Shown here one piece after another: positions 8,563-53,762 of a DNA stretch of 64,000 nt (within the stretch, counting starts at the first letter, position 1; each line of letters opens with the position of its first letter). The translations under genes were made by a program, and so were the position numbers. The notes beneath the pieces were generated by a model. That model was not told the DNA's origin and did no database searches. It was given only the letters and a program-made list of their open reading frames with translations. The stretch spans positions 349-64,348 of the forward strand of contig JAJYLD010000005.1 in assembly GCA_021788015.1 (NCBI GenBank), in the 5' to 3' direction. Origin of the DNA: a bacterium. GTDB lineage: Bacteria; Patescibacteriota; Patescibacteriia; Patescibacteriales; JAKAJF01.

Positions 8563-9042
8563 TCATTGAAAATTGTTTAAAAATTTAAAATTAGAAATTA
8601 AAAATTATAACTTGTAATTGCATTTGACCAATTTTCAAAGACGCATTATAATAATTTAGTAATACATTTATTTTAAAATTTATGATTAAAGTGGACAAAG
8701 ATTTATGCATCGGCTGCGGAACATGCGCGGCTTTGTGCCCGGATACTTTTCAAATCGGAGCCGACGGGAAATCCGAAGCTGTAAATCAAAACAATATGGA
8801 TTGCGCGAAGAAAGCGGCGGAAAGTTGCCCGGTACAGGCGATAAGCGCGGAGTAAAAAATAACGTGTTGAATAAAAACGGCCCGAAAGGGTTGTTTTTTA
8901 ATGGAGGAGATGGTAAAATAAAATTTCCAAATGAAATTTCTAGTTTTAAATTTTTAATTTTTAAACAATTTTCAATGAATCAATTTTTAAAATTTAAAAT
9001 TAAGATATTATTTAAAAATTATAAAATTAGAAATTAAAAATT
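8563..9042. repeat. Repeat bracket around the ferredoxin gene: 23-bp perfect inverted repeat plus 20-bp direct repeat
   Basis: IR is TCATTGAAAATTGTTTAAAAATT at 8563-8585, with its exact reverse complement at 8956-8978. DR is AAAATTAGAAATTAAAAATT at 8587-8606 and 9023-9042. Confidence 0.8.
8682..8855 (+). CDS. Small [4Fe-4S]/[3Fe-4S] ferredoxin (57 aa; below the ORF-track cutoff)
   Basis: MIKVDKDLCIGCGTCAALCP...CPVQAI carries the CxxCxxCxxxCP motif plus a distal CP. Confidence 0.8.
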   Translation: MIKVDKDLCIGCGTCAALCPDTFQIGADGKSEAVNQNNMDCAKKAAESCPVQAISAE

Positions 9043-11851: not shown

Positions 11852-11979
11852 AAAAAAATTCGGACTTTAAAAGGTCTGAAATTTTGGCCTTTGAAAATAT
11901 AAAATTCATCAGAAAAGAAAAAGGAGGAAAAACGAGAGCAGATTTTTTGAGAGTAAAAAATTTGGAAAAGGAGATGAAG

Positions 11980-14058
11980 ATGGCAGGAAAAACAGCTTTT
12001 CAGAAGATTATCGACGCGCATTGTGTAAAGGTTCTTCCGGCGGACGGAAGAATGGTTCTCAAGCCCGACCGGGTTTGGGGGCATGAGATTACCCCTCCGA
12101 TCGGCATCCTCGACGCGAAAGAGAAAGGGATCGATGTTGTCTTTAATCCAAACAAGATAAAGATGATGATCGATCATGTTAATCCCCCGAAAGATACGGA
12201 TTCAGCCGTACAAAGGAAGATTTGTTATGACTGGTCCGGAGAACATGGAACAGAATTTCTCGATACGGGACGAGGAGGGGTTTGCCACGTTGTTATACCG
12301 GAAAACGGATGGATACTGCCCGGCGAGATCGGTATCATGCCTGACAGCCATACTTGCACGCATGGCGCGTTTTGCGCTTTCACGGCAGGTATAGGTACGA
12401 CAGAGTTCGAAAATGCGTATATCACCGGACTCTGGGTCTGCCCGCCTCAAAAAGTCATTCGCGTCAACTTTACAGGCAAGTTGCCTGCGAACGTTTTCGC
12501 GAAAGATCTTATCCTGGCGCTGATCTCATATATCGGGGTCAGGGGCGCGACCAATGCCGTACTTGAATTTGGCGGCCCGGTTATTGAAGCCATGAGCATG
12601 GAAGCAAGGATGACGATGACTAACATGGCCGTCGAGGCAGGGGCAACCTCAGGGATGATGATGGTCGACAAGAAGACCGTTGCATATCTCAGAGAGGTTT
12701 TAAAAAACTTCTATAATGAGGATGCCCGCGATGACCAGATACTCGCCGACCTCGAAAGATGGAACAGCGACCCGGACGCCGAGTACGGCCAGGTGATTAA
12801 TATAAACGCGACCAACATGGTCCCGATGATCACTTATGGGCACTCTCCTGCCGAGGTTATCAGTACAAAAGGTTTCAACCCCGTCTATAAAACTTACGAA
12901 GGATCGATATTGGTCGGCACGGAGAAGGAGATTATAGAAACAAATATTTTTTCCCTGGAAGAGAAGAAGGTGGATCAGGTGTATATCGGCTCTTGCACGA
13001 ACGGCAGGATCGAAGACTTACGGATCGCGGCCGGCATTTTCGCCGAGACCAAAGGCAGAGTGGCGGATAGCCTCCGCTGCATTGTCGTTCCGGGCAGCCA
13101 GCGCGTTTACAACCAGGCGCTCGATGAAGGGCTTCTAAAAATTTTCGCGGAAGCGGATTGCTTTGTGGCCGGGCCTACCTGCGGCGCTTGTTTAGGCATG
13201 TCCTGCGGAGTGCTCGCTCCCGGAGAAGTCTGCGTTTCGACCACGAACCGTAACTTTCCCGGACGTATGGGCAAGGGCGGAATGGTTCATTTAGCTTCGC
13301 CGGCAACCGCTACTCTAACCGCAATCAAGGGCGCAGTCGTCGAACCGGATCTGGAGCTTTGCGCTTCCGTTCTTAAAAAATACGTGCATCCGTTTCCGTC
13401 GGCAGCGGCGCATCCGACCGGCTGGACCGATCACGAAGTTCCGGTTATCGACTATGCCAAGCTTGCGGCTAAAGTAGCGGAGATGGCGTCGTCATCGATG
13501 GATTTTTCCGGAGAGGTATTTTGTCTTCCGGTAGATAATGTTGACACCGACCAAATCATTCCGGCTCGGTGGTTAAACAAAGTCGAAAAAAAATTTTTCG
13601 GCGAGCATTTACTTGAGGACGCGCCGATTTCTCCGGAGGACAGGCCCAAACTTCAGCGGGTGCGGATACTGGTGGGCGGCGAAAATTTCGGTTGCGGATC
13701 TTCGCGGGAAATGGCGCCTATGGCCTTCGAAGCGGCCGAGATCAGATGCATAATCGCGCCGAGCTTTGCCCGCATCTTCGAGAACAACATGTTCGCGAGG
13801 GGATTGCTCTGTATTACGCTACCGAAAGCTGATACCGATGAGTTGATGAGAAAAAGACCTGATAGTTTGGGAGTTGATCTCAATGGAGATGGAAATAAAG
13901 GATATGTATGTTGGGCAGAAAACGCAGCAGGAATCTGCGTGTCTCAGGTATATGAATTCAACATTTCCGATTACCAGAAAGAGCTCATCCGCAAAGGCGG
14001 CAGTACGGGCGTAATGCTCGAGCTCGCGGCCGAGCTGCAGAAGGAAGGCAAACTGTAA
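11980..14058 (+). CDS. leuCD: Fused 3-isopropylmalate/citramalate dehydratase large+small subunit (aconitase family LeuC-LeuD fusion)
   Basis: N-terminal part has DSHTCTHGA and GSCTNGRIEDL. C-terminal part has DNVDTDQIIPA and GENFGCGSSRE (LeuD swivel). AAGGAG sits 6 nt before ATG 11980; ATG 11974 is also possible. Confidence 0.8.
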   Translation: MAGKTAFQKIIDAHCVKVLPADGRMVLKPDRVWGHEITPPIGILDAKEKGIDVVFNPNKIKMMIDHVNPPKDTDSAVQRKICYDWSGEHGTEFLDTGRGGVCHVVIPENGWILPGEIGIMPDSHTCTHGAFCAFTAGIGTTEFENAYITGLWVCPPQKVIRVNFTGKLPANVFAKDLILALISYIGVRGATNAVLEFGGPVIEAMSMEARMTMTNMAVEAGATSGMMMVDKKTVAYLREVLKNFYNEDARDDQILADLERWNSDPDAEYGQVININATNMVPMITYGHSPAEVISTKGFNPVYKTYEGSILVGTEKEIIETNIFSLEEKKVDQVYIGSCTNGRIEDLRIAAGIFAETKGRVADSLRCIVVPGSQRVYNQALDEGLLKIFAEADCFVAGPTCGACLGMSCGVLAPGEVCVSTTNRNFPGRMGKGGMVHLASPATATLTAIKGAVVEPDLELCASVLKKYVHPFPSAAAHPTGWTDHEVPVIDYAKLAAKVAEMASSSMDFSGEVFCLPVDNVDTDQIIPARWLNKVEKKFFGEHLLEDAPISPEDRPKLQRVRILVGGENFGCGSSREMAPMAFEAAEIRCIIAPSFARIFENNMFARGLLCITLPKADTDELMRKRPDSLGVDLNGDGNKGYVCWAENAAGICVSQVYEFNISDYQKELIRKGGSTGVMLELAAELQKEGKL

Positions 14059-14114
14059 AAATCACAAAAGGCCGTTTCGAGAGAGGCGGTCCAAAAAAAC
14101 ATGGAGGGCAGAGA

Positions 14115-15197
14115 ATGAACATTGCCGTGATCGAAGGAGACGGGACAGGACCGGAAGTCATAGCGGAAGCAAAAAAAGTAATGGAAGCTGCTTGTGAATC
14201 CAGTTCGGAAGGCAGGCTGGAATTTTTCCATTACGATCTGGGTGGAGCGAGGTATCTTAAAACCGGCGAGCTTTTGCCGGAAAGTGTTTTGCAGGAACTG
14301 AAAGAGTATGACGCCATTCTTCTCGGCGCAATCGGGCATCCGGACGTAAAGCCGGGTATTCTCGAAAAAGGTATACTGCTCGCAATCCGGTTTGGATTGG
14401 ACCAGTACATAAACCTGCGGCCGGTCAAGTTATACCCCGGCGTATATTGCCCGCTTAAAGACAAGGGGCCGGACGACATTGATTTCATAATCATCCGCGA
14501 GAACACGGGTGGCATCTATACGGGCCATGGCGGCGTAACGCATAAAGGTGAACCCGATGAAGTCGCCACTCAGGAAATGATTTATACGCGTCCCATGGTG
14601 GACCGCTGTCTTGAGTTTGCCTTCAGCCTGAAAGAGGACCGTAATAAAGAGAACCCCGCATGTTCTCAGAAACCCCTGCATCTCGTGCACAAGACAAATG
14701 TCCTGACCAACTGTGGTGACCTCTGGAATAGGGCGTTTGAAACCATGGGGGCAGACCTTTACCCTTCGGTCTGGCGCGTCTACGCCCATGTGGACGCGAC
14801 CACGATGTGGATGATAAAAAACCCGGAATGGTTCGACGTGATCGTGACCGAGAATCTTTTTGGAGACATCATTACCGATCTCGGCGCTATGATCCAGGGC
14901 GGCATGGGAATCGCCGCCGGTGGAAATATTAACCCGGGAGGCATTTCGATGTTCGAACCGATCGGGGGATCGGCGCCTAAGTATGCTGGCCAGAACATTA
15001 TTAATCCTTTGGCCGCCATTTGTGCTGGCGCGATGCTGCTCAGATATTCCGGCGCGGAGGTTGATACCGAAGCGGCCGATCGCATCGAGGCCGCAGTGAA
15101 AAAAGCGCTCGGCGAAGGCTATATAAGAAGCCTTGCCGCCGGGCAGATGGGAATGTCGACTTCCGAGGTTGGCGATCTCGTTTCCAAGTTCGTTTAA
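14115..15197 (+). CDS. leuB: 3-isopropylmalate dehydrogenase family (LeuB-like beta-decarboxylating dehydrogenase)
   Basis: IAVIEGDGTGPEV, NLRPVK, IIRENTGGIYTG, NLFGDIITDLGA and GSAP motifs. Confidence 0.8.
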   Translation: MNIAVIEGDGTGPEVIAEAKKVMEAACESSSEGRLEFFHYDLGGARYLKTGELLPESVLQELKEYDAILLGAIGHPDVKPGILEKGILLAIRFGLDQYINLRPVKLYPGVYCPLKDKGPDDIDFIIIRENTGGIYTGHGGVTHKGEPDEVATQEMIYTRPMVDRCLEFAFSLKEDRNKENPACSQKPLHLVHKTNVLTNCGDLWNRAFETMGADLYPSVWRVYAHVDATTMWMIKNPEWFDVIVTENLFGDIITDLGAMIQGGMGIAAGGNINPGGISMFEPIGGSAPKYAGQNIINPLAAICAGAMLLRYSGAEVDTEAADRIEAAVKKALGEGYIRSLAAGQMGMSTSEVGDLVSKFV

Positions 15198-15206
15198 AGA
15201 ACAACA

Positions 15207-15240
15207 AAGCCGAACGGTTTATCCGTCCGGCTTATTTTTT
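15207..15240 (+). terminator. Intrinsic terminator after leuB
   Basis: AAGCCGAACGG tttat CCGTCCGGCTT plus T-run. It begins AAAGCCGAACG, as does the hisI terminator. Confidence 0.75.
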
Positions 15241-15303
15241 TATCCAAAATTACTAGCGCGTACTTCAAAACATCATAAAAAGTACATAAGACGAAGATAA
15301 ATA

Positions 15304-15452
15304 AACGCTTCGCTAGGAGTTACTTTCTTGTAACCAAGAAAGTAACCAAAGAAGTTTCGGGGGCTCCAATTCGCTATCACATTGATTTATCTTTAAACTC
15401 TCTTGCTCTGACGCTCAATTTCGCCCCCAAACCCCATTGGTGTTTTGAATAC
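15304..15452. repeat. Family B repeat, copy 1 (about 150 nt)
   Basis: The first ~80 nt (aacgcttcgctaggagttactttcttgtaaccaagaaagtaacc...gggggctccaattcgc) are identical to 34465-34544. The remainder is similar but diverged. Confidence 0.8.
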
Positions 15453-15514
15453 GAAATATTTTTTTACGATCTATACCTGTCTGCTGGCAGTAGGCTGGAT
15501 TAGAGAGGAAATTT

Positions 15515-17386
15515 TTAAACGATGCTTTCATGTAGTTTCGCTTTGATTGTTTTCGGAGTGATGTTATGTTCTTTATTATAATCTTCCTGAATTTTTCGGC
15601 GTCGTTTCGTTTCATTGATAGCATAGCGCATGGCCGGCGTTATCATGTCCGCGTACATGATTACGTGTCCCTCGACATGGCGGGCGGCGCGACCCATTGT
15701 CTGAATAAGTGAAGTTTCATTACGTAAAAATCCGGACATGTCCGCGTCCAAAATGGCAACGAGTGAAACCTCCGGCAAATCGAGCCCTTCGCGCAGAAGA
15801 TTGACGCCGATCAAAACGTCGTATTTGCCTTCGCGCAGATCGCGGAGAATGTCGACGCGCAATAATGTTTCCACTTCGCTATGGAGATATTGCACTTTAA
15901 TATTCTGCTCGTTCAAAAAATCGGAAATTTCTTCGGCCATTCTTTTGGTCAAGGTCGTGACTAACACTCTTTGCTTTTTCGCGACGCGCAAATTTATTTC
16001 TTTAATCAAGTCCCGGATCTGATTCTGCGATGGCCTGATTTCGATTTCCGGATCGAGAAGTCCGGTCGGGCGAATGAGCTGCTCGACTACTTGCTTTGAA
16101 TTTCTAATTTCGTAATCCGACGGCGTGGCACTTACGTAAACAATCTGGTTTATTTTATCATTAAACTCTTCGAAATTGAGCGGGCGGTTGTCTTTTGCCG
16201 AGGGTAGGCGGAAACCGAAATCAACCAAAGTTTGTTTGCGCGATTGGTCGCCCGCGTACATGCCGCGAACTTGCGGAACGGTGACGTGCGATTCGTCGAT
16301 AAAGGTGATAAAATCTCCGGGCCCGCCTCGCGTCGACGAGCCTCTGCGAGTCGAGGCGGGAAAAAAATCAAGCAAGGTCGCGGGCGGAGAGCCGGCCGGC
16401 CGGCCAGAGAGATGGCGGGAATAGTTTTCAATGCCGTTGCAATACCCGACCTCTTCAATCATTTCCAAATCGTAATTCGTTTTTCTTTCAAGTCTTTCCG
16501 CTTCGACGATTTTATTTTGTTTTCTTAATTCATTCAGTCTGTCGCGCAATTCCTCTCGAATGGTTTTAAAAGCTTTTTTCATTCTCGCTTCCGGAGTCAT
16601 GTAGTGCTTTGCCGGGAGAATGGTAATGTCTTTGAGTTTATGAGCATGACCTTCTACGCCCCCCTTAATAAATGGGGGTAGGGGGGATTTATTCGAGGCG
16701 CCCGGATTAATCGAGTTAATATAAATTTTTTCAATATAATCTCCAAACATATTTATCCTGACAATGGCTTCGCCCGTCGCGAGATGAATATCGATATTTT
16801 CGCCGCGCACCATGAATGTGCCGCGCCTGAATTCGATTTCGTCGCGCGTATATTGGATTTTGACCAATTCTTTCAATAAGTCGTTACGTTTTATTTTTTG
16901 GCCGACTTGGTAATGTTTGCCCATGGCTTCGTAATCTTCCTTTTCGCCCAAGCCGTAGATACAGGAAACGCTGGCCACGATTAAAACGTCTTTGCGGTTG
17001 ATCAACGACTGGGTGGCGGCGTGACGGAGGCGATCGATTTCTTCATTGATAGTCGCTTCCTTTTCGATGTAAGTATCGGTCTGCGGAACGTAGGCTTCCG
17101 GCTGGTAATAATCATAGTAAGAGACAAAATAATGGACCGCGTTTTCCGGAAAGAATTGCCGGAACTCGCCGTAGAGCTGGGCGGCGAGAGTTTTGTTATG
17201 TGAAATCACCAATGTCGGTTTTTGGATTTTCTCGATTGTCTTGGCCATGGTGAAAGTTTTCCCCGAACCGGTTACGCCGAGAAGAGTTTGATCGCGATAG
17301 CCTTTTTTAATTCCTTCCACCAGTTTTTTGATGGCACCAGGTTGATCCCCTGTTGGCTTAAATTTTGAATGGAGTTTGAAATTCAT
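15515..17386 (-). CDS. uvrB: Excinuclease ABC subunit B
   Basis: [10 protein letters not shown] Walker [14 protein letters not shown], helicase motifs and C-terminal tail. Confidence 0.95.
16657..16700 (-). repeat. Family D palindromic unit in frame in uvrB
   Basis: + strand reads cgccccccttaataaatgggggtaggggggatttattcgagg. On the coding strand it encodes [17 protein letters not shown], in a loop that is about 15 aa shorter in E. coli UvrB (recalled). Confidence 0.6.
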
Positions 17387-24225: not shown

Positions 24226-24501
24226 ATGAAAATTACAAAAAAAGTGCAGGAAAAATATTTTAAAGCCATTCTTGAAGGCGAGAAAACATACGAAGTCCGT
24301 TTGGCGGATTTTGAATGCAAGCCGGGCGATGTTCTTGTTTTGCTTGAACAAAAAGACGGAACCCGGGAATTGACGGGAAGGAAAATGGAATGCGAAATTT
24401 CCATGGTTTTCAATACGAAAGATATGGAAAAATTTCACAGCAAAAATGAAATCGAAAAGTATGGATTATTGGTTATGGCCATAAAAAAGAAAGAAATATG
24501 A
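24226..24501 (+). CDS. ASCH/DUF3850-like PUA-fold protein
   Basis: KYFKAILEGEKTYEVRLADF...GD.L.L is typical of ASCH/DUF3850. The stop TGA lies in the ATGA at 24498-24501. Confidence 0.6.
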   Translation: MKITKKVQEKYFKAILEGEKTYEVRLADFECKPGDVLVLLEQKDGTRELTGRKMECEISMVFNTKDMEKFHSKNEIEKYGLLVMAIKKKEI

Positions 24502-24623
24502 ATCCCGTTAGAAGCCGCAATCGCTTTCGGCGGAGAATAAATAAAACGGAGTTTAAAAAATTGTAATTTACGCGGATGTGCAATCAAATATTCTTGATCG
24601 CGATCTGCTTCTAACGGGATGAA
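24498..24623 (+). repeat. Family A start-codon hairpin element, copy 1
   Basis: ATGAA+TCCCGTTAGAAGCCGCAATCGC ... GATCGCGATCTGCTTCTAACGGGATGAA. Perfect 14-bp IR at 24502-15/24607-20. The terminal AT is part of ATG 24619. Confidence 0.9.
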
Positions 24624-25155
24624 ACATATTTACATACCCGGTTTTCTCGATACGGCGAAATACAGAAAAATGATCCCGGGTTTAGAAATCTGGCTTGAAG
24701 ATATCGATCCAAAAGAAAAGATTGAAACCGAATATGTAGTCGGGCATAGCATGGGAGCCGATTTCGCCTTGATCAATTGGGACAAAAACAGAAATACAAA
24801 ATTGATTCTTTCCAATCCGATTTTGTTAAAAAGAAATTTTTTTGCATGGGTGGCGAGATGGGCGAAATATTTATTTACGGCGGAAGAAAAGTTTCCGATC
24901 GGCAGATGGCCGACTTTACTTCATCCTGTTCTTGCGATAAAAAGACTTTTTCAATTGATGAATCAAGATTTTGACAAAATTCTTTCCGAAGTTCCCAGAG
25001 GACATATAATTATCGTGAGAGGCAAAGAAGACAAATATTTATGCTGCGAAGAAACGGCCGAATTTATAAAAAATAAAGGCGTAAATTTGATTGAAGTAGA
25101 TGGAGCGAGCCATGATTGGGAAGACGTAAAAAATGAAGTTTTAAAGATTTTATGA
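24619..25155 (+). CDS. Alpha/beta hydrolase (serine hydrolase)
   Basis: GHSMG nucleophile elbow. C-terminal D...H (ASHDWE). Confidence 0.65.
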   Translation: MKHIYIPGFLDTAKYRKMIPGLEIWLEDIDPKEKIETEYVVGHSMGADFALINWDKNRNTKLILSNPILLKRNFFAWVARWAKYLFTAEEKFPIGRWPTLLHPVLAIKRLFQLMNQDFDKILSEVPRGHIIIVRGKEDKYLCCEETAEFIKNKGVNLIEVDGASHDWEDVKNEVLKIL

Positions 25156-39198: not shown

Positions 39199-39324
39199 AT
39201 GTATCCCGTTAGAAGCCGCGATCGCTTCGACAGGAAAAACATAAACAAGCAAAAAATCTAATTAATTATATTACACAGATCGAAATCAATATTCTTGATC
39301 GCGATCTGATTCTAATGGGATGTA
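39199..39324 (+). repeat. Family A start-codon hairpin element, copy 2
   Basis: ATGTA+TCCCGTTAGAAGCCGCGATCGC ... GATCGCGATCTGATTCTAATGGGATGTA. The terminal ATG is the start of 39320. Confidence 0.9.
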
Positions 39325-39964
39325 CATAACATGGTTGGGACAATCCTGCCTTAAACTTTCCGATAAAACCGGCTCCGATGCCGTAACTTTAATCACCGAT
39401 CCGTTTGACAAACAAATCGGCCTTCCGGTTCCGCATGTCGAAGCCGATATCGTAACCATAAGCCATGGTCATTTTGACCATAACAACAAAGACGCCGTGC
39501 GAGGCAACCCTTTTGTAATAGATGCGGCGGGCGAATACGACGTGAAGGGAGTGCAAATCGTTGGGATAGATTCCTATCACGATGACAAAGAAGGGAAAGA
39601 GCGGGGCAAAAATGTAATTTATCGCATAACCATGGACGATCTTTCCGTCGTTCATTTGGGCGATCTGGGTCACACGCTCGATGATAAGCAGCTTGAAAAA
39701 ATAAACGGCACGGATATTTTATTTATTCCTGTCGGCGGCGTGTATACCATCGACGCAAGAAGGGCGGTCGAAGTGATAGCGCAAATCGAACCGAGAATCG
39801 TCATGCCCATGCACTATAAAATCAAAGATTTGAAAGTAGAGCTCGATGGAGTCGATAAATTTATAAAAGAAATCGGGTTGACGCCGAAATATGAAGATAA
39901 ATTTAAAATTTCGAAAAAAGATTTGCCGCAGGAAGAGATGGAACTGGTGATACTAAACCTGTAA
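39320..39964 (+). CDS. Metallo-beta-lactamase-fold hydrolase (UPF0173-like)
   Basis: ITWLGQSC...SHGHFDHN...HLGDLGH. Confidence 0.75.
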   Translation: MYITWLGQSCLKLSDKTGSDAVTLITDPFDKQIGLPVPHVEADIVTISHGHFDHNNKDAVRGNPFVIDAAGEYDVKGVQIVGIDSYHDDKEGKERGKNVIYRITMDDLSVVHLGDLGHTLDDKQLEKINGTDILFIPVGGVYTIDARRAVEVIAQIEPRIVMPMHYKIKDLKVELDGVDKFIKEIGLTPKYEDKFKISKKDLPQEEMELVILNL

Positions 39965-45713: not shown

Positions 45714-45955
45714 ACGAATCCCGTTAGGAGCAGCGATCGTTTTTTACGGGAGCGGACAAAAACATAGAATAAAAAACCATAATTTACGCAAATGCGCAAT
45801 TTAAGATTTTGATCGCGATCCCGATACCGCAAATCCTATCGGATTCGGCCACGGGACAAGTTCTGCCGCGCAAAACTTATTATTAACCACGTCTCGCCCC
45901 CGTAGTCACCGAATTTACGAGGTGCACTACAGGGGTCTGCTTTTAACGGAATGAA
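45714..45955 (+). repeat. Family A element, long copy 4, with an extra ~117-nt structured module (45821-45937)
   Basis: The 5' arm is aatcccgttaggagcagcgatcg. The module is ATCCCGATACC...CCCCGTAGTCACCgaatttacgaGGTGcACTACaGGGGTC. The 3' arm TGCTTTTAACGGAATGAA ends in ATG 45951. Confidence 0.85.
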
Positions 45956-47209: not shown

Positions 47210-47329
47210 ATGATAAAAGCCGTAATGACAACTGAAAAAATGATTAAGAATATTATTGCTCTCTTCGTAGGCATTTTTGTCATTGCCCATGAAGTTTTGG
47301 CGGCCAGGAATCATATGATAACGGAATAA
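47210..47329 (+). CDS. 39-aa single-TM peptide (hypothetical, near-leaderless)
   Basis: TTGACT(47173)-17-TAAATT(47196), then ATG 8 nt later. IIALFVGIFVIA TM. Terminator GGCCGCCgaaaaatcaGCGGTCtttt follows. Confidence 0.4.
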   Translation: MIKAVMTTEKMIKNIIALFVGIFVIAHEVLAARNHMITE

Positions 47330-47450
47330 AAATAATTTACATAGATTCGAAAGGCCGCCGAAAAATCAGCGGTCTTTTAAATTGATCTTTACAATTTTTA
47401 TTCAGGCAAGGGCGGATTTATCGATATAAATTCTAAGAATTGGAGGATGT

Positions 47451-47615
47451 ATGGCCGAAAAGAGCGGAGACTCGAACGAAGTAGTTGACCCGGTTGATAT
47501 CGGGACAATGGAATTTTCAGAATTTGCCGGAGAAGAAGTGCTGAGAAATCTGGCAAAAAGTGCGGTCCGAGACCAAAAAAAAGATAGATACAAGGAGGGA
47601 ATCGGTGAGTATTGA
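47451..47615 (+). CDS. 54-aa acidic protein (hypothetical), first gene of a 3-gene cluster
   Basis: GGAGGA SD 4 nt before the ATG. Overlaps the next gene start by 11 nt. Confidence 0.5.
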   Translation: MAEKSGDSNEVVDPVDIGTMEFSEFAGEEVLRNLAKSAVRDQKKDRYKEGIGEY

Positions 47616-48210
47616 AACAATGGGCGACGGGACTAAAGCGGCTAGGCTTTCGGATTGGTCTGTAGCGGATGAAAAGCGGGAGCGTCGCCAAAAGCAGTGC
47701 GAAATCTTGCTGAACAGCATCAAGGAATTTGCTGTCCATTTAAAGGTTTTAAACAGTAACGGCGGTGACAAAAATTTAGCCTTGTATCGCGGAGCCGATC
47801 TGGTCTCGCGCATCATACCGATTCAGGTAATCGAGCTTAGAAGGTTCATGGATGACAATGTTGTAAATATGGTTGTGAAAACGATGTACAAGGAGCTGGC
47901 TCGCTCACTCGAAACCGCCTCCGTTTCTCTGTTTACGGAAACGGCTCAATTACTAATGGGCGAACCGGCAAGAAAAAAAGTTACCCTCGATCCGGGCAAA
48001 ATTTTCAGGAGCATTCGGCACGTCCGGAGTGCTCTAAAAACGGGGCATATCATCGCTGTCCGGAAACAGGAAAAAGGGTTCATTATAATAATGGGCCCCG
48101 TACACGAAGGCAAAAAAGACGAATTAATAAACGAATTGATAAAAAACCCAGAAACAAAAGAGTTCGTCTTGGTGCATAACGGAAAAAAACGAAAGCCGGC
48201 CGAGGTTTAG
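47605..48210 (+). CDS. Hypothetical protein (about 201 aa)
   Basis: AAGGAGGG SD 5 nt before GTG 47605. The C-terminal ~60 aa resemble the downstream 84-aa protein. Confidence 0.55.
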   Translation: MSIETMGDGTKAARLSDWSVADEKRERRQKQCEILLNSIKEFAVHLKVLNSNGGDKNLALYRGADLVSRIIPIQVIELRRFMDDNVVNMVVKTMYKELARSLETASVSLFTETAQLLMGEPARKKVTLDPGKIFRSIRHVRSALKTGHIIAVRKQEKGFIIIMGPVHEGKKDELINELIKNPETKEFVLVHNGKKRKPAEV

Positions 48211-48219
48211 GGGGAGTAA

Positions 48220-48474
48220 ATGCTACCGATAGGAAAGCCGATCGATCTGGACAATATCATGGGGATGCTTAGAAAGGGCCGAGCTGTTGTGGTTGCCAAA
48301 GTCTTCGAGAACGACTCTTCATGGTTCGAAGTTTGTTCCAAAGAGGTTACCACCCTTAAGGGCATAACTCAAGCTTTGGCTTCAGCCGGAAAGAAATATT
48401 CCGAGACCCAGATTTTCGTAATCGGGAACTACGGAAAAACAGAGAAGCGTAAGCCTGAAACGGAAAAGATTTAA
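48220..48474 (+). CDS. Hypothetical protein (84 aa), related to the C-terminus of 47605-48210
   Basis: GGGGGAG SD. Pattern L.KG..V.V.K......F.........L...L.......E..IFV..N.GK..KRKP is shared with the upstream protein. Confidence 0.5.
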   Translation: MLPIGKPIDLDNIMGMLRKGRAVVVAKVFENDSSWFEVCSKEVTTLKGITQALASAGKKYSETQIFVIGNYGKTEKRKPETEKI

Positions 48475-48521
48475 TCTTTTCCTCTTTTTTCAAATCACAA
48501 AATTATATATATAAATAAGAT

Positions 48522-48648
48522 ATGAATCCCGTTAGAAGCCGCGATCGCTTTTAGGGGGAGTCAAAAAACAAAAATAAAAAAATAAATAATTTTAAAATAT
48601 CATGCAGATCAAAAATTTTTGATCGCGATCTGCTTCTAACGGGATGAA
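48522..48648 (+). repeat. Family A start-codon hairpin element, copy 5
   Basis: ATGAA+TCCCGTTAGAAGCCGCGATCGC ... GATCGCGATCTGCTTCTAACGGGATGAA. The terminal ATG 48644 opens the Ile-rich leader ORF. Confidence 0.9.
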
Positions 48649-48721
48649 TTTATTTCAAAGCGCGAAAATTATTTCGATTATTGAGATCATCATTATTGAT
48701 GACCATTTTTGCGCGCTTTGA
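48644..48721 (+). promoter_or_regulatory. Ile-rich leader peptide ORF (25 codons, 8 Ile)
   Basis: MNLFQSAKIISIIEIIIIDDHFCAL. The stop lies inside the candidate antiterminator strand 48714-48726. Confidence 0.7.
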
Positions 48722-48747
48722 AGACGAAAACATAAAAATAAAAGGAG

Positions 48748-48775
48748 CCGTCTTCGAAGCGAGAAGACGGTTTTT
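48748..48775 (+). terminator. Attenuator terminator upstream of cimA
   Basis: CCGTCTTC gaagcga GAAGACGG plus TTTTT. The 5' arm can alternatively pair 13 bp with 48714-48726. Confidence 0.75.
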
Positions 48776-48824
48776 GTATGGATCTTTCAAAACAAAATCG
48801 TTAGAAGATAAAGGAGAACATGAG

Positions 48825-50396
48825 ATGACCGAAATTTATGACACGACTCTTAGGGACGGGGCGCAGACTGAAAATATTTCTTTTTCAGTCCGGGATAAAC
48901 TGAAAATCGCTTGGCGTCTTAAGGAATTCGGCATTCCTTTTGTCGAAGGCGGTTGGCCGAGCGCGAATCCGAAAGACACGGAATTTTTCCAAAAAGCGGT
49001 CGCAACGGATTTAAAAGATGTTTTAGTCGCGTTTGGGAGCACTTTTCATCCGAAGTCGAGAAACGCCGGCGACGACAAGGGGTTGAAAGCTTTGATTCTG
49101 AGTGGAGCGAAGGCGGTTGCAATTTTCGGAAAGACATGGGATTTTCACGTCAGCGACGCTTTGAGAATACCGCTTGAGGAAAATCTTAGAATCATTTTCG
49201 AGTCGGTGAAGTTTTTAAAAAGCCGGCTTGAAAAAGTTTTCTTCGACGCCGAGCATTTCTTCGATGGCTATAAAGCGAATCCGGGATATGCGCTGGAATG
49301 TCTCAAGGCCGCGGAACGGGCGGGAGCGGACACGATCATTCTTTGCGATACCAACGGCGGCGCCCTTCCGGCTGAAGTCGAATCCGTTTTTCGAGACATA
49401 AAGAGAGTCGGCGTTTCGGTCGCTTTGGGCATTCACGCCCATAACGACTGCGAGTTGGCGGTTGCCAATTCTTTGGCCGCGGTAAAAGCCGGCGCCATCC
49501 AGGTGCAAGGCACCATCAACGGTCTCGGAGAAAGGTGCGGTAACGCGAATCTCGTTTCGATAATCCCCACGCTTGAACTCAAACTCGGTGAAAAATGCCT
49601 GCCGCCCGAGAAATTGAACGAACTTCGCGAAACCTCCCTTTTTATAAGTGAAGTTGCCAATGTCGCGCATTCAAAAAGGCAAGCTTATGTCGGTGACAGC
49701 GCCTTTGCGCATAAGGCGGGAATGCATGTAAGCGCGGTGAATCGCAACCCCGAAACTTACGAGCATATTAATCCCGCTTCGGTCGGCAACAAGCGCAGAA
49801 TACTCGTCTCGGATTTATCCGGTAGAAGCAATATCTTGCGCAAGGCCGGAGAAATCGGGATGAAATTGGAGGAAAAATCTCCGCGCGTGCAAGCGATTCT
49901 CGATGAAATCAAGTCGCTGGAAAACCAGGGTTACGCGTTTGAGGCGGCGGACGCTTCTTTCGAGCTTTTGGTCAAAAAAGCGTTTGGCTTTTATCAACCT
50001 TTCTTCGAACTCGTCAGCTCCAGGATCGTTAATTCAAAGAACGGCGGACTTTCCCGGAATGAAGCGACAGTAATGCTTCGAGTCGGGGAGCGCGAGGAGC
50101 ATACCGCCGGAAAAGGAGACGGCCCTATCAATGCCGTTGACGAGGCGTTAAGAAAAGCTCTCGAACGTTATTACCCGATTCTCAAAAAGGTCAGACTCGT
50201 AGACTATAAAGTCACCGTGCTTTCCGAAATTGAAGGCACGTCGGCAAAGGTTCGAGTTTTGATAGAATCGGAAAGCGACGGAGAAAGATGGACCACAATC
50301 GGCGTTTCCACCGATGTCATCGAAGCGTCCCGCCAGGCCTTGATCGACGGAATAGAATATTTTCTTCTTAAAAAAGATGTGAAAGCCCTAATTTAA
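48825..50396 (+). CDS. cimA: Citramalate synthase-like (LeuA/CimA family with C-terminal regulatory domain)
   Basis: IYDTTLRDGAQTENISFSVRDKL.IA..L.EFG..FVEGGWPSANPKD.EFF matches the CimA-type N-terminus as recalled. AAGGAG 8 nt before ATG 48825. Confidence 0.65.
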   Translation: MTEIYDTTLRDGAQTENISFSVRDKLKIAWRLKEFGIPFVEGGWPSANPKDTEFFQKAVATDLKDVLVAFGSTFHPKSRNAGDDKGLKALILSGAKAVAIFGKTWDFHVSDALRIPLEENLRIIFESVKFLKSRLEKVFFDAEHFFDGYKANPGYALECLKAAERAGADTIILCDTNGGALPAEVESVFRDIKRVGVSVALGIHAHNDCELAVANSLAAVKAGAIQVQGTINGLGERCGNANLVSIIPTLELKLGEKCLPPEKLNELRETSLFISEVANVAHSKRQAYVGDSAFAHKAGMHVSAVNRNPETYEHINPASVGNKRRILVSDLSGRSNILRKAGEIGMKLEEKSPRVQAILDEIKSLENQGYAFEAADASFELLVKKAFGFYQPFFELVSSRIVNSKNGGLSRNEATVMLRVGEREEHTAGKGDGPINAVDEALRKALERYYPILKKVRLVDYKVTVLSEIEGTSAKVRVLIESESDGERWTTIGVSTDVIEASRQALIDGIEYFLLKKDVKALI

Positions 50397-50418
50397 TTAG
50401 GGCTTGTTTTTTTTCGCA
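50383..50418 (+). terminator. Terminator after cimA
   Basis: AAGCCCTAATT ta ATTAGGGCTT plus T-run. The stop codon lies inside the stem. Confidence 0.75.
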
Positions 50419-50440
50419 AGTATGATACAATGTGGTCATT

Positions 50441-50521
50441 ATGAGACAAGCCGCACAAAATTTACTACTCGCTTTGTTGCTTTTATCGCCTCGTCGGGTG
50501 GCTTGTTTTCATGCGTTTTAA
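50441..50521 (+). promoter_or_regulatory. Leu-rich leader peptide ORF (26 codons, 7 Leu)
   Basis: MRQAAQNLLLALLLLSPRRVACFHAF, using TTA CTA CTC .. TTG TTG CTT TTA. Confidence 0.65.
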
Positions 50522-50548
50522 GAAAATAGATAAAAATAAAACAGCAAG

Positions 50549-50570
50549 ACCGCCCCAAAAGGCGGTTTTT
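50549..50570 (+). terminator. Attenuator terminator upstream of leuA
   Basis: ACCGCC ccaaaa GGCGGT plus TTTT, 48 nt before ATG 50618. Confidence 0.65.
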
Positions 50571-50617
50571 AAATTGTATAGACCTTTTGAAATTTGAAAA
50601 TTGACAAGGAGGGCGCG

Positions 50618-52225
50618 ATGAATAATTTGATTTTGAACGACGTATCTTTGCGGGAGTCCGGTCAGGTCGAGGGAGGAATGATGAATCCCTCGGATCAAAT
50701 TCGGTATGTTCAGTATCTGCTCGAAGGAGGAATAAATCGAATAGAGATCGGTTTTCCGGGAAGTTCGGAAGAGCAGAAAAGGCAGTGCCAAAGAATAGCG
50801 GAACATGTTCACAAATGGGATGGTACAAAACCGAATCTTTCCGGATTGGCCAGGGCGCACAAAAATGACATCCTGGCGGTCAAAGAAGCGGGCTGCGATA
50901 TGTGCCATATTTACATTCCGGCAAGCGACGAGTTGATGTTGGCCCAATTTCACGCGGAGAAATACGGAACCACAAAAGACGAGAAGCGGAAGCGCATCAC
51001 CGAGACTGCAAAAGAGGCGATCGTTTTTGCCAAATCTCTCGGATTCGCCCATATCGAATATTCTCCGGAAGACGCGGCAAGGGCCGGCAAAGAATTTTTA
51101 AGCTTTCTAGTCCAAGAAGTCGTTGAAGTGGGAGCGGATATCGTAAACATTCCGGACACCACGGGGCTGCGTATCGGCTCGGAATTCGGCGACCTCATCG
51201 CCTATCTCTTCGCCAATGTGGCCGACATAAACAGATCCACGATTTCGGTCCATTGCCATAATGATAGCGATCACTCGACCCATAACGCTCTTCAAGCCGT
51301 TCTGGCGGGAGCAAGACAAGTCGAAGGAGCCTTTTACGGACTGGGAGAACGCAGTGGAATGACAAAATTCGAAGCCCTGCTGATGAACATAAACACAAGA
51401 AGAGATATTTTTAAAAACGTTGAAACAGATTTCGACAAAAGTGTTTGCGTTAAGATCGTCAATTTCGTGGGGCAAGTCTTGGGCATGCCGGTTCCCAGAC
51501 ATTGGGTTGTGGCGGGATCCCAGAATGGCATTGTCAGTTCTGGAACGCATCAGGCGATCGAAGCGCGGGCGGAAGAGCAGGGAAAGGAAAGTCCGTATTA
51601 CAGCTGGAACCCCGGTGAGTACGGGCACAAAGGGGTCGAAGTGGTCGTAACTCAATCTTCGGGTAAGGCCGGTTTGAAAAAAAGACTCGAAAAACTTGGC
51701 TATAATGTTTCCGATATTCAACTCGCAAAAATAAGCGAGCGAGTAAAACAAATTTCGGAAGCAAAATCCGGCACGGCTCTCAAAGATGTCGAGCTTACCG
51801 CCATCGTCCAAGAAGCGATAACGGAAATTCCTTTCCCCATTATGATTAAAAGATGCCAAACCACGGGTGGAAAAGGAACGATCCCGAGCGCGACGGTTGT
51901 TCTCGAAGCGGACAGTCGAATATTTACCGATATCGCCACCGGAGACGGACCTTTCGACGCCGTTATGAAGGCGGTGAAAAGCGCGATCGGAAAAGCGTAT
52001 CCGGAAGTTAAAGAAGCGCAAATTTCTCTTGTCCATTGGCACGCCTCTGCGTTAACTCCGGGCACTAATGCGGTAGCCGACGCTTACGCCCAGATCAAGG
52101 TTGTAAACGGAGGAGATCGAATTTTCTCCGGGAAAGGCGCCGATCCCGACACTATTCAGGCTTCGGCGCAAGCCTTCGCCAATTGTTTCAGTTGGTATCT
52201 GGCCTCCATCAATCAAGCGGATTAA
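50618..52225 (+). CDS. leuA: 2-isopropylmalate synthase-like (LeuA family)
   Basis: DVSLRESGQ (DRE-TIM), HCHNDSDH, C-terminal LeuA dimer/regulatory-like domain. AAGGAGGG SD. Confidence 0.6.
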   Translation: MNNLILNDVSLRESGQVEGGMMNPSDQIRYVQYLLEGGINRIEIGFPGSSEEQKRQCQRIAEHVHKWDGTKPNLSGLARAHKNDILAVKEAGCDMCHIYIPASDELMLAQFHAEKYGTTKDEKRKRITETAKEAIVFAKSLGFAHIEYSPEDAARAGKEFLSFLVQEVVEVGADIVNIPDTTGLRIGSEFGDLIAYLFANVADINRSTISVHCHNDSDHSTHNALQAVLAGARQVEGAFYGLGERSGMTKFEALLMNINTRRDIFKNVETDFDKSVCVKIVNFVGQVLGMPVPRHWVVAGSQNGIVSSGTHQAIEARAEEQGKESPYYSWNPGEYGHKGVEVVVTQSSGKAGLKKRLEKLGYNVSDIQLAKISERVKQISEAKSGTALKDVELTAIVQEAITEIPFPIMIKRCQTTGGKGTIPSATVVLEADSRIFTDIATGDGPFDAVMKAVKSAIGKAYPEVKEAQISLVHWHASALTPGTNAVADAYAQIKVVNGGDRIFSGKGADPDTIQASAQAFANCFSWYLASINQAD

Positions 52226-52240: not shown

Positions 52241-52483
52241 TTTTTCATTTCAAAAACTTGCAATTTTGCATGCATATGCTATAATTATCCACATATGATA
52301 AGTAAAACAACGCAAAAAATTCATTTCTGGTTTAGATTTAGCTACTTCTTTAGCTCTGATCGGAGATCGGTTTTTTGTGGTGTTTTATATAGGTAGTAAA
52401 ACTCACAAGGGAAAACGAAACTGGCTCCGATCAAAAATCGGAGCCAGTTTTTAAATGTGATCATTTGAAAAAGGAGGGCAGTA

Positions 52484-52639
52484 ATGGACGAGGAGGTGCA
52501 AAATGACGACATTTTATCGGACAAAACAAAAAAAGGAGCGTATTTTTTCGTAAAAACAGCAGGGCTTGATATAAGGCCGGGAGATATGGGAAAAATCGAA
52601 GAAGGAGATAACGACGATGTCGAAAAAACAGGCAATTGA
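52484..52639 (+). CDS. 51-aa acidic protein (hypothetical; below the ORF-track cutoff)
   Basis: AAAAGGAGGG SD 5 nt before the ATG. Overlaps the next gene. Confidence 0.45.
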   Translation: MDEEVQNDDILSDKTKKGAYFFVKTAGLDIRPGDMGKIEEGDNDDVEKTGN

Positions 52640-52793
52640 TTCCAGGCCAAAAGAAGAAAGATTAATAGAAGAGTATACTGAGGCTATCGGGACTGACGCC
52701 AGCAAGGCGCAAGCTGCAAAAGAAGCTCTGAAAAAAGCGGGATTGGGCGACCTAGCGACTTTAATTGAAAATAAGGTTGCCGGCCAAGTTTAA
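52617..52793 (+). CDS. 58-aa protein (hypothetical; below the ORF-track cutoff)
   Basis: GAAGGAG SD. Followed by terminator GCCGTTAcaaatagTAACGGC plus T-run (52794-52821). Confidence 0.45.
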   Translation: MSKKQAIDSRPKEERLIEEYTEAIGTDASKAQAAKEALKKAGLGDLATLIENKVAGQV

Positions 52794-52880: not shown

Positions 52881-52911
52881 TTTTTTAATATTTGTTAGAA
52901 TGTAAGCAGAT

Positions 52912-53115
52912 ATGAATCCCGTTAGAAGCCGCGATCGCTTCAACGGGAGTAAAAATTAAAATATAATATTCGCAGAGTGATCCCGATACCACCAATCCTA
53001 TCGGATTTGGCTATGGGACAAGTCCATTGCAAGTAATTTATTATTAATTACGCCTCGCCCCGTAGTCACCGAGTTTACGAGGTGCACTACCGGGGTCTGC
53101 TTCTAACGGGATGAA
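52912..53115 (+). repeat. Family A element, long copy 6, with the structured module (52982-53097)
   Basis: ATGAA+TCCCGTTAGAAGCCGCGATCGC; the module is homologous to 45821-45937; the 3' arm is TGCTTCTAACGGGATGAA. The terminal ATG 53111 opens a 26-codon ORF. Confidence 0.9.
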
Positions 53116-53191
53116 AAGATACTGTGCACAAATGAATAATAACAATAATAACTGGCTCAAGACCGGTTTCTTTTCATGTGTTAAAAAGTAA
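53111..53191 (+). promoter_or_regulatory. Candidate leader peptide with six consecutive Asn codons
   Basis: MKRYCAQMNNNNNNWLKTGFFSCVKK. GACCGGTT (53161-68) inside the ORF is the exact complement of the terminator 5' arm AACCGGTC (53214-21). Confidence 0.4.
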
Positions 53192-53213
53192 GTTAAAAAA
53201 TCACATAAAAAAG

Positions 53214-53242
53214 AACCGGTCGGGCAAAAGGCCGGTTTTTTT
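53214..53242 (+). terminator. Terminator-like hairpin between the Asn-run ORF and the 57-aa gene
   Basis: AACCGGTC gggcaaaa GGCCGGTT plus T7. Confidence 0.6.
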
Positions 53243-53302: not shown

Positions 53303-53476
53303 ATGACGGTAAGAACAGTTAAAGTCAGGGACGAGTTAACCGGACAGAAGGTAGTGGCCAGTATTGAAGAAGTGGGCGGAAGGAGACTTTTGGTTCTGCC
53401 CGGACTTAGGAAAGTGGAACAGCCATTTCCTCCGAAAGAGGAGCCAGCTAAACCGGAAGACGAGCCAAGCAACTAG
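53303..53476 (+). CDS. 57-aa protein (hypothetical)
   Basis: AAAGGAGGG SD 4 nt before the ATG. Terminator GGCAAGCaaaaacaGCTTGCC plus T-run at 53476-53506. Confidence 0.5.
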   Translation: MTVRTVKVRDELTGQKVVASIEEVGGRRLLVLPGLRKVEQPFPPKEEPAKPEDEPSN

Positions 53477-53581: not shown

Positions 53582-53762
53582 CGGAGTATAGTATAAGTGG
53601 CAGTACGCGCCCGCTTGCTCCGTTACTCAATTACCGGGGTGTAGTATAACGGTAGTACGCGAGCATGGGGTGCTTGTAGCCGGGGTTCAATTCCCCGCAC
53701 CCCGAAAGATGAGTAACGGGGTGAAGGCGGGGGTAGTTCCGGTTCGATTCCGGATACTCCGA
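53582..53762 (+). ncRNA. tRNA-shaped outer gene whose anticodon arm is replaced by a long helix carrying an embedded tRNA-Pro
   Basis: Acceptor CGGAGTA/TACTCCG plus A73. D arm GTAT-AAGTGGCA-GTAC. T arm TCCGG-TTCGATT-CCGGA. Helix CCGTTACTCA (53620-29)/TGAGTAACGG (53710-19) is extendable to about 15 bp and stacks on CCCGC/GCGGG. No 7-nt anticodon loop. Confidence 0.5.
53635..53705 (+). tRNA. tRNA-Pro (anticodon GGG), CCA not encoded
   Basis: Manual cloverleaf: CGGGGTG TA GTAT AACGGTA GTAC G CGAGC AT-GGG-GT GCTTG TAGC CGGGG TTCAATT CCCCG CACCCCG A. C1:G72, A73 and G37 fit Pro identity. Confidence 0.85.

Follow-up and report, generated by a model that had tools for sequence, protein, structure and literature searches.

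Organization of the LeuA-Like Locus

Within a 64-kb stretch of Patescibacteria DNA (hereafter the window, with position 1 as its first letter and all coordinates on that numbering), we analyzed a candidate leucine attenuator lying directly ahead of a gene for a LeuA-like synthase. On the forward strand, the locus comprises a putative promoter (nt. 50404–50431), a short open reading frame (ORF) encoding a Leu-rich leader peptide (nt. 50441–50521), an intrinsic terminator (nt. 50546–50570), a Shine-Dalgarno (SD) sequence (AAGGAGGG, nt. 50606–50613), and the LeuA-like gene itself (nt. 50618–52225, 535 a.a), whose product carries HMGL-like, HCS_D2, and LeuA_dimer domains. An earlier note on this DNA had described the ORF, the hairpin, and the SD with ATG 50618 behind it as a Leu attenuator in front of a leuA-type gene, and each of these parts can be read from the sequence as claimed.

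Leader Peptide

The leader ORF runs from ATG 50441 to TAA 50519–50521, with 26 codons (MRQAAQNLLLALLLLSPRRVACFHAF) ahead of the stop. It contains seven Leu within eight consecutive codons (nt. 50462–50485), specified by five different Leu codons, which read TTA CTA CTC (nt. 50462–50470), a single GCT, and then TTG TTG CTT TTA (nt. 50474–50485). We scanned the whole window in six frames for ATG ORFs of 10–60 codons, using first-order Markov random windows as the expectation, and noted that the leader was the sole such ORF with at least six Leu in nine residues. The proposed enrichment of Leu over a composition-matched expectation is thus strong, with 0.035 ORFs expected per random window at seven of nine. 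The only Ile-rich counterpart was the neighboring leader at nt. 48644–48721, described further below.

These figures bear on the simplest alternative, in which T-rich intergenic sequence would by coincidence spell Leu codons beside an ordinary terminator. Leu has six codons, the region is AT-rich, and ~0.3 ORFs with at least six Leu in nine are expected per random window, all of which favor coincidence; however, the expectation drops to the far lower value above at seven of nine, and the unit recurs at the same position in most orthologous loci (see below) with a mean column identity of 46% across the leader RNA. A chance origin is effectively refuted.

Other ORFs overlapping the leader were also inspected. 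One starting at ATG 50422 in another frame was rejected, as it begins inside the −10 box and has no enriched residue, and the antisense ORFs at nt. 50439–50828 and nt. 50483–51052 match no Pfam family and overlap a well-supported gene on the other strand.

Terminator and Alternative RNA Helices

The hairpin following the leader (ACCGCC-CCAAAA-GGCGGT, then TTTTT) was confirmed by sequence and by RNAfold, which lengthens the stem to nt. 50546–50569 (AAGACCGCC/GGCGGUUUU, loop CCAAAA), with the U-run at nt. 50566–50570 and a fold energy of −11.3 to −13.1 kcal/mol. Assignment of this hairpin to the upstream citramalate synthase gene (cimA) was rejected, as cimA has its own terminator (nt. 50383–50414) upstream of the leader promoter.

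Four RNA segments are relevant to the alternative folds of the leader. Region 1 (nt. 50441–50454, AUGAGACAAGCCGC) comprises the first five codons, including the start codon; region 2 (nt. 50496–50512, GGGUGGCUUGUUUUCAU) spans the codons for RVACFH; region 3 (nt. 50538–50555, AAAACAGCAAGACCGCCC) overlaps the terminator 5′ arm; and region 4 (nt. 50561–50569) is the terminator 3′ arm. An element within region 2 (GGGUGGCUUGUUUU, nt. 50496–50509) is complementary to the terminator 5′ arm and a few bases upstream of it, such that regions 2 and 3 provide the 5′ and 3′ strands of an antiterminator (nt. 50496–50509 with nt. 50538–50555) of −17 to −19 kcal/mol (−19.2 kcal/mol as a duplex), stronger than the terminator. 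The earlier note had listed two shorter pairings as candidates for this helix, and both are real, representing the two halves of one interrupted helix. The antiterminator and terminator are mutually exclusive, and region 2 lies where a terminating ribosome would mask it. Region 1, in turn, is an alternative partner of region 2 (i.e., an anti-antiterminator), and this helix (nt. 50441–50454 with nt. 50498–50512) is part of the minimum free energy structure of the window leader (−34.7 kcal/mol), with a duplex energy of −20.1 kcal/mol (z = −3.1).

An alternative-fold energy calculation had been suggested as a check on the attenuator, and we ran it by setting a 30-nt ribosome footprint at successive codons and folding the RNA remaining 3′ of the footprint. 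With the aminoacyl (A) site on any of Leu codons 1–4, the antiterminator formed at −20 to −27 kcal/mol, and it was present even before the terminator 3′ arm was transcribed. With the A-site on Leu codon 7 or the stop codon, or with the ribosome absent, the terminator formed instead, so that the simulated ribosome position switches the RNA between the two structures.

Conservation and Covariation of the Leader

A metagenome scan with a clade-specific block, together with exact-protein look-ups, yielded 19 distinct orthologous loci, all from Patescibacteria metagenome-assembled genomes (MAGs), with LeuA-like protein identities of 46–61%. The comparative search for Leu-rich mini-ORFs that the note had called for bears out their conservation, with the attenuator unit present immediately upstream of the LeuA-like gene in 18 of the 19 loci. 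Each of the 18 comprises an ATG mini-ORF with 6–10 Leu in a 7–12-codon stretch (e.g., MKQVTLKNLLLGLLLLLLPQRVACFNVKI, MNRAIPQNLLLSLLLLKSPRVALFSRR, and MKTAKQKNLSLNLLLLLPKRVAVFHA), followed by a hairpin and U-run that begins 21–37 nt beyond the leader stop codon. The 165 kb of these loci contain, counting both strands, 22 short Leu-rich ORFs, of which 18 occupy the leader position. The geometry of the unit is nearly constant among loci: region 2 follows the last Leu codon after a median of 9 nt and ends 3 nt short of the stop codon, the terminator arm lies 27 nt past the stop codon, and the span between ATG and U-run is 134 nt (all medians). Outside the Leu run, the peptide varies freely in sequence and in length (23–45 a.a). 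All six Leu codons are in use across the leaders, with TTA and CTA over-represented compared to the downstream genes, and this usage argues for selection on the translated codons and not on a nucleotide motif.

The pairing of region 2 with region 3 is also conserved. Matched pairs averaged −18.9 kcal/mol vs. −13.9 kcal/mol when regions were mismatched between loci (permutation p < 5e-5), per-locus z-scores were mostly −3 to −7, and an element at the 3′ end of the ORF complementary to the terminator arm was identified in 16–17 of 19 loci. On a plain MAFFT alignment, RNAalifold predicted a 7-bp antiterminator core unaided, with double changes at four of the seven pairs. A count of pairs on the alignment gave 94% of cells paired, 13 cells with double changes, and a covariation score of 0.425 (vs. 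0.27); these values were not reached in any of 500 shuffles, and slid registers, used as a control, were only 32–49% paired. Examples of co-changes between the element and the terminator arm include GGAUGGCUU with AAGCCAUCC in locus L088, GUGGUUAGU with ACUAGCCAC in L083, and GGAAGG with CCUUUC in L087. These changes in region 2 alter the encoded peptide (RRVA, LDGL, GRFT, SVVSL) while the pairing is kept; the constraint there is therefore on the RNA, with the Leu run kept at the amino-acid level. Region 1 behaves similarly toward region 2, with matched pairs at −14.8 kcal/mol vs. −11.0 kcal/mol for mismatched ones (permutation p < 5e-5).

This pattern argues against the mini-ORF being a functional hydrophobic micropeptide, such as a membrane peptide, whose position is incidental or merely syntenic. 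Its core (LLLALLLL) is hydrophobic and roughly transmembrane-like, and it has its own promoter and terminator, as such a gene would. However, the freely varying residues and length outside the Leu run fit this poorly, the PRRVA stretch turns into unrelated residues wherever the terminator arm changes (i.e., an RNA-level constraint), and the complementary element at the ORF 3′ end recurs as noted. In addition, sister units in the window carry runs of Ile, Asn, or Phe before other genes, as expected of codon sensing but not of a membrane peptide, and NNNNNN is not hydrophobic. We consider a micropeptide extremely unlikely.

As the 3′ arms of the terminators fall out of register in the MAFFT alignment, the terminators were assessed locus by locus, with no covariation count. 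A canonical hairpin and U-run equivalent to that of the window was found in all 19 leader-bearing units, the window included. Translation of the leader could also regulate in another manner, through Rho-dependent polarity, mRNA stability, or downstream translation, with the hairpin as a constitutive partial terminator. Against this, the hairpin is GC-rich and followed by its U-run in every unit, the competing element at the 3′ end of the ORF covaries with it, and the SD of the LeuA-like gene lies at least 36 nt beyond the terminator, outside the alternative helices; a role of this kind is very unlikely. Computation shows the ORF and its enrichment in Leu, the terminator, and the three alternative helices, as well as the conservation and covariation of these parts.

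Three of the orthologous loci exhibit further elements. In L097, the first Leu attenuator is separated from the LeuA-like gene by a tandem second leader-like ORF (MKHHFVQKLHKWLPLLLSVCFCVE, nt. 3832–3957 of that locus) that has a terminator of its own, and L085 has a second hairpin plus T-run before the LeuA-like gene. In L096, an attenuator-like unit (nt. 3263–3410) with an Ile/Thr-rich ORF (MQVKDIFITDVIITLLAEAQRGWIACVKIN) is located upstream of a 93-a.a ORF and the LeuA-like gene, the latter having a free-standing 201-a.a LeuA_dimer protein encoded behind it; this arrangement may reflect a different specificity or regulation.

Promoter and Translation Start

The putative promoter of the window leader consists of a −35 hexamer (TTGTTT), a 16-nt spacer, and an extended −10 element (TG-a-TACAAT, nt. 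50423–50431), the latter ending 9 nt before the leader ATG. Its −35 region is overlapped by the T-tract of the cimA terminator, which has the stem AAGCCCTAATT/AATTAGGGCTT followed by T8, as located by a terminator scan and the sequence. Among the 18 other leader-bearing loci, 13 have a strong promoter (TTGACA or TTGACT, a 16–18 nt spacer, and a −10 box), mostly with TG upstream of the −10, which ends 6–20 nt before the leader ATG (6 nt in three of them).

No SD was seen upstream of the window mini-ORF on reading the sequence, and SD-like sequence is absent ahead of 17 of the 19 leaders. With no SD and a −10 box so near the ATG, the mRNA from which the mini-ORF is translated is probably leaderless or nearly so. 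The leaderless leuA, ilvB, and trp leaders of Actinobacteria, shown by transcription start site mapping (PMC8079986, PMC5784534), include Leu leaders before leuA and so provide a precedent for the window leader.

The LeuA-Like Gene and Its Pathway Context

The homologs of the LeuA-like protein (P0002–P0049) form a separate clade of about 48 sequences with 46–61% identity, after which identity drops to 35% with ordinary LeuA. Clade members that bear a name are nearly all Patescibacteria or Parcubacteria, as MAGs, and the GyrA encoded on the same contig as the window is 76–84% identical to proteins of Candidatus Falkowbacteria, Patescibacteria, and Parcubacteria. The clade exhibits the motif LRES(A/G)Q (LRESxQ) vs. 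LRDGxQ in the family, and GERSGMTK in place of the usual GERAGNA-type motif. In the first of these motifs, the usual Asp metal ligand appears to be replaced by Glu in the clade.

The best relatives of the protein in the PDB are 2-isopropylmalate synthase (IPMS) enzymes, and the leuA assignment given in the earlier note gains support from the gene neighborhoods. In L095, the LeuA-like gene, an Aconitase/Aconitase_C fusion (leuCD), and Iso_dh (leuB) lie in a row, and in L092 the LeuA-like gene is adjacent to fused leuCD and leuB, with ilvE and ilvD. Genes for a fused LeuCD (Aconitase plus Aconitase_C, nt. 11884–14058; its real start is probably ATG 11980) and for LeuB (nt. 14115–15197) are present in the window as well. 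We therefore presume the LeuA-like protein to be an IPMS, the synthase of the leucine branch, an assignment that is well supported by this context. A leader was looked for before the window leuCD (nt. 11884) and none was found, only a promoter-like site and a plain 5′ untranslated region (UTR). The G+C content of the nt. 11884–15197 stretch is 0.49–0.52 and that of cimA and the LeuA-like gene is 0.46–0.48, compared to a window average of about 0.41, and these branched-chain amino acid (BCAA) genes may have been horizontally acquired.

Proposed Attenuation Mechanism

Taken together, these features support the reading given in the earlier note: the locus is very probably a transcription attenuator of the ribosome-mediated, leader-peptide type, by which the LeuA-like gene would be expressed according to how much charged tRNA-Leu is available. 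Transcription would begin a few nucleotides upstream of ATG 50441, from the extended −10 promoter, and a ribosome would initiate on the leaderless or nearly leaderless mini-ORF, after which the four RNA segments described above would interact according to its position. If the ribosome is absent, region 1 would pair with region 2 and region 3 with region 4, forming the terminator, and transcription would end at the U-run. When Leu is ample, the ribosome would reach the stop codon at nt. 50519 and cover region 2, keeping it away from region 3, such that the 3:4 helix would again form and transcription would terminate. When charged tRNA-Leu is scarce, the ribosome would stall within the seven Leu codons, on one of the first four or five. 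As the loop enclosed by regions 1 and 2 contains the Leu codons, stalling at any point of the run would sterically block the 1:2 helix, leaving region 2 free to pair with region 3 once the latter is made. At about −17 to −27 kcal/mol, the 2:3 helix would outcompete the terminator at −11 to −13 kcal/mol, and RNA polymerase would read into the LeuA-like gene. In this scheme, we infer the transcription start, translation of the mini-ORF, ribosome stalling, and Leu-dependent read-through from sequence and thermodynamics.

Several observations weigh against this interpretation. The −35 hexamer of the window is weak (three of six matches), a generic promoter scan of the window did not report the leader promoter, and the start of transcription, the translation of an ORF that has no SD, and the termination event are all predictions. 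One ortholog, L096, is without a Leu leader, the antiterminator energies of L093 and L097 are no better than those of shuffles (z = −0.4 to −0.6), and about four loci individually have no convincing 1:2 helix. The LeuA-like protein scores below every curated IPMS cut-off among the NCBIfam/TIGRFAM equivalogs (328.9 bits vs. 532 for NF002086, the best, and 296.5 vs. 598.7 for TIGR00973), and the substrate of the enzyme is for this reason a putative one. Finally, we know of no demonstration of transcription-translation coupling in Patescibacteria.

Comparison with Known Leader Systems

At the gathering score of Rfam 15, neither the window nor 17 of the orthologous loci showed a Leu_leader, leu/phe leader, T-box, or other cis-regulatory match. 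The enterobacterial Leu_leader (RF00512) was likewise absent from nt. 48200–50800 at E ≤ 10, as were the leu/phe leader and, apart from the match given next, other cis-regulatory families, and the T-box (RF00230) was absent from the window and the 17 loci at any threshold used. The best Rfam match to nt. 50456–50575 was the Phe_leader (RF01859) at a sub-threshold 25.6 bits (gathering score 55, E = 0.23), in an alignment that spans the overall layout of leader hairpin and terminator; however, many of the consensus pairs are broken and the regulatory codons of the window leader are Leu, not Phe.

These results bear on whether the RNA could instead be a translation-independent switch, sensing a ligand, an RNA-binding protein, or uncharged tRNA-Leu as in a T-box, with the ORF being incidental. 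Alternative terminators and antiterminators are common in riboswitches and T-boxes, and the ilv-leu operon of Bacillus is under T-box control (cited in PMC5794164). However, no T-box or riboswitch matched in the window (E ≤ 10) or in the 17 orthologous loci (gathering score), the leader is ~130 nt, which is too short for a T-box, and it has no conserved core resembling a ligand pocket. The conservation is also frame-specific, retaining the ATG, an uninterrupted frame, Leu codons of the UUR as well as the CUN family, and a fixed distance from stop codon to terminator. Such a switch is highly unlikely. The Bacillus ilv-leu T-box does share with the attenuator proposed here the sensing of tRNA-Leu charging and a terminator/antiterminator switch, but it binds the tRNA directly with no translated ORF.

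A close parallel in logic to a leader-peptide attenuator at this locus is the enterobacterial leuL. Like the window leader, it has a short ORF with a run of Leu codons, an intrinsic terminator, and mutually exclusive 1:2, 2:3, and 3:4 helices, it governs the first committed enzyme of leucine synthesis, and the choice between stalling and running to the stop codon is the same. In contrast, the two share no sequence or covariance-model similarity (E ≤ 10), and the window leader has seven Leu codons of five kinds rather than four; those of enterobacterial leuL are mostly CUA. The window leader further differs in having no SD and being probably leaderless, in its start codon lying within region 1 and its Leu codons in the loop between regions 1 and 2, in preceding a single divergent LeuA-like gene instead of leuABCD, and in its Patescibacterium host.

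The leuA leaders of Actinobacteria (leuL or LEU element, in Streptomyces, Corynebacterium, and Mycobacterium) resemble the window leader in having a mini-ORF directly upstream of leuA; this mini-ORF is leaderless, contains a run of 4–5 Leu, and precedes a monocistronic leuA (PMC8079986, PMC5784534, PMC1262725). Unlike the window leader, they have no typical intrinsic terminator, and a pseudoknot or a base stem involving the leuA SD has been proposed for them; the results of mutagenesis in Streptomyces did not fit classical attenuation (PMC1262725). The window leader instead has a canonical terminator and a covarying antiterminator, with the SD uninvolved. The attenuator peptide of the Staphylococcus aureus ilv-leu operon and the Lactococcus leu/phe leader (RF01743, no Rfam match in the window) also combine a Leu-rich peptide with a terminator/antiterminator before BCAA genes, in Gram-positive hosts. 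Regulation in S. aureus has experimental support, as Leu limitation and leader mutations raise expression (PMC5794164). The S. aureus peptide, however, has a ribosome binding site and mixed Ile/Leu codons, its antiterminator sequesters the poly-U tail, and it precedes a nine-gene operon.

Neighboring Ile Leader and Citramalate Synthase

The gene upstream of the Leu attenuator (cimA, nt. 48825–50396, forward strand) encodes a citramalate synthase, with a TIGR00977 score of 715 bits against a cut-off of 450. It is preceded by an Ile leader (nt. 48644–48721, forward strand; MNLFQSAKIISIIEIIIIDDHFCAL) that is built like the Leu leader and contains 10 Ile, followed by a terminator at nt. 48743–48775. 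The contrast drawn in the earlier note, of an Ile leader beside the cimA-like gene and a Leu leader beside its neighbor, is thus real, and the gene behind the Ile leader is a bona fide citramalate synthase. Translation of the synthase probably begins at ATG 48825, which follows the SD AAAGGAG; the gene as publicly annotated opens at nt. 48699, runs in frame through the terminator, and is thus ~42 codons too long. An antiterminator pairing UGAAGACGA with CCGUCUUCG in the Ile leader is short and indistinguishable from shuffles (z = −1.1). If both leaders work, the two committed steps feeding the shared LeuCD/LeuB would be controlled separately by their own end products.

A Wider Set of Leaders and Other Elements

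A covariance model (R1) built from the 3′ halves of the 19 leaders recovers its seeds. As a negative set, and only for this purpose, we used 80 canonical LeuA loci from other phyla (L001–L080, ~32% identity), which had come from a contig scan with the clade alignment that was swamped by a generic HCHND pattern and yielded no orthologs. The only R1 match among them was L059, which is itself from a Patescibacteria MAG (JAMCUI010000009.1) and in which a Leu-containing mini-ORF (MRNLTLSSLDLLLQRRFLMV) and a terminator (nt. 3842–3980 of L059) lie directly before a canonical-type leuA (30 bits, E = 5e-4).

Four attenuator-like units (Ile, Leu, Phe-rich, and Asn) thus occur in a 5-kb part of the window. 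The Asn leader (nt. 53111–53191, MKRYCAQMNNNNNNWLKTGFFSCVKK) has six consecutive AAT/AAC codons, an R1 match of 38 bits (E = 3e-7), an antiterminator of −22.4 kcal/mol (z = −7.9), and a terminator at nt. 53209–53242; downstream of it are an SD-led 57-a.a ORF without a Pfam family (nt. 53303–53476) and tRNA-Pro(GGG) (nt. 53635–53705). The Phe/aromatic-rich mini-ORF (nt. 52295–52396, MISKTTQKIHFWFRFSYFFSSDRRSVFCGVLYR) was found by eye, 9 nt after the promoter TTGCAA-16-TGcTATAAT, and its folding follows the design of the Leu leader, with a region 2 (GAUCGGAG...) complementary to the 5′ arm of a strong terminator (nt. 52417–52451, −24.5 kcal/mol). It is followed by tiny SD-led ORFs at nt. 52484–52639 and nt. 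52617–52793, also without a Pfam family. Searched by tblastn, the small ORFs behind both leaders (Phe-rich and Asn) had no match in the orthologous loci.

R1 also matched two units in the orthologous loci, in L092 (nt. 13724–13852, before nt. 14006–15868) and L095 (nt. 8783–8908, before nt. 8945 onward), where an Ile/Val-rich leader (M(I/T)(K/E)KLPK(N/I)LDIVVVVSLIIPT) with a terminator of Leu-leader-like design precedes a PALP gene, whose threonine dehydratase-like (IlvA-like) product is fused to a LeuA_dimer regulatory domain. A weak R1 match at nt. 47210–47380 of the window (14 bits, E = 0.55), comprising an ORF (MIKAVMTTEKMIKNIIALFVGIFVIAHEVLAARNHMITE) and a GGCCGCC...GCGGTC hairpin plus T-run upstream of the ORFs at nt. 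47560–48474, is unconvincing as an attenuator.

These codon runs (Leu ahead of the LeuA-like gene and of a canonical leuA, Ile ahead of cimA, Ile/Val ahead of the PALP-LeuA_dimer fusion, and Asn and Phe/aromatic ahead of tiny ORFs) raise the prospect, to which we give slightly less than even weight, that the Leu leader belongs to a modular family of leaderless attenuators of the leader-peptide type that extends across the Patescibacteria lineage (also known as CPR, the Candidate Phyla Radiation). The common scaffold would start with a promoter and an SD-less ATG, continue with a codon run and a region 2 able to pair with the terminator arm, and end in the terminator, with the codon runs being swapped.

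A separate repeated 5′ cassette was noted in the window at nt. 24498–24624, 39199–39325, 45714–45955, 48518–48654, and 52908–53116. It consists of a 5′ arm (ATGAATCCCGTTAGAAGCCGCGATCGC), an AT-rich loop, and a 3′ arm (TTGATCGCGATCTGCTTCTAACGGGATGAA), with a long form of ~240 nt in two copies, and in every case the following ORF opens at an ATG within the 3′ arm and lacks an SD. The ORFs concerned encode a hydrolase-like 178-a.a protein, a metallo-beta-lactamase-fold protein, a response regulator, the Ile leader, and the Asn leader. Eight matches to the arms were found vs. 0.05 expected, and the short form folds at −38 kcal/mol (z = −3.9). The cassette is genome-specific, being absent from the other loci, and has no Rfam match; it might represent a processing stem or a mobile promoter/5′-UTR cassette that yields leaderless mRNAs.

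Biological Significance

Patescibacteria are generally described as having minimal biosynthetic capacity and as poor in known gene regulation. Our literature search found nothing linking leader peptides or attenuation to this group. The mechanism itself is not new, and it can be assigned with confidence because leader-peptide attenuation is textbook biology; what is new is the lineage and the RNA family. The attenuator indicates that the divergent, CPR-restricted LeuA-like clade, which falls short of every curated IPMS model, serves leucine synthesis, with its expression tuned to the charging of tRNA-Leu. The absence of SD sequences and the short spacing between the −10 box and the ATG also suggest leaderless initiation and coupled transcription and translation in organisms that cannot as yet be cultured alone. 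The covariance model also detects attenuators whose codon runs differ, and it could thus help to link unknown CPR genes to amino-acid-related roles. Should the lineage-wide family prove true, it would represent a previously unseen amino-acid-starvation regulon and would imply tight transcription-translation coupling, along with leaderless initiation, in these reduced-genome bacteria.

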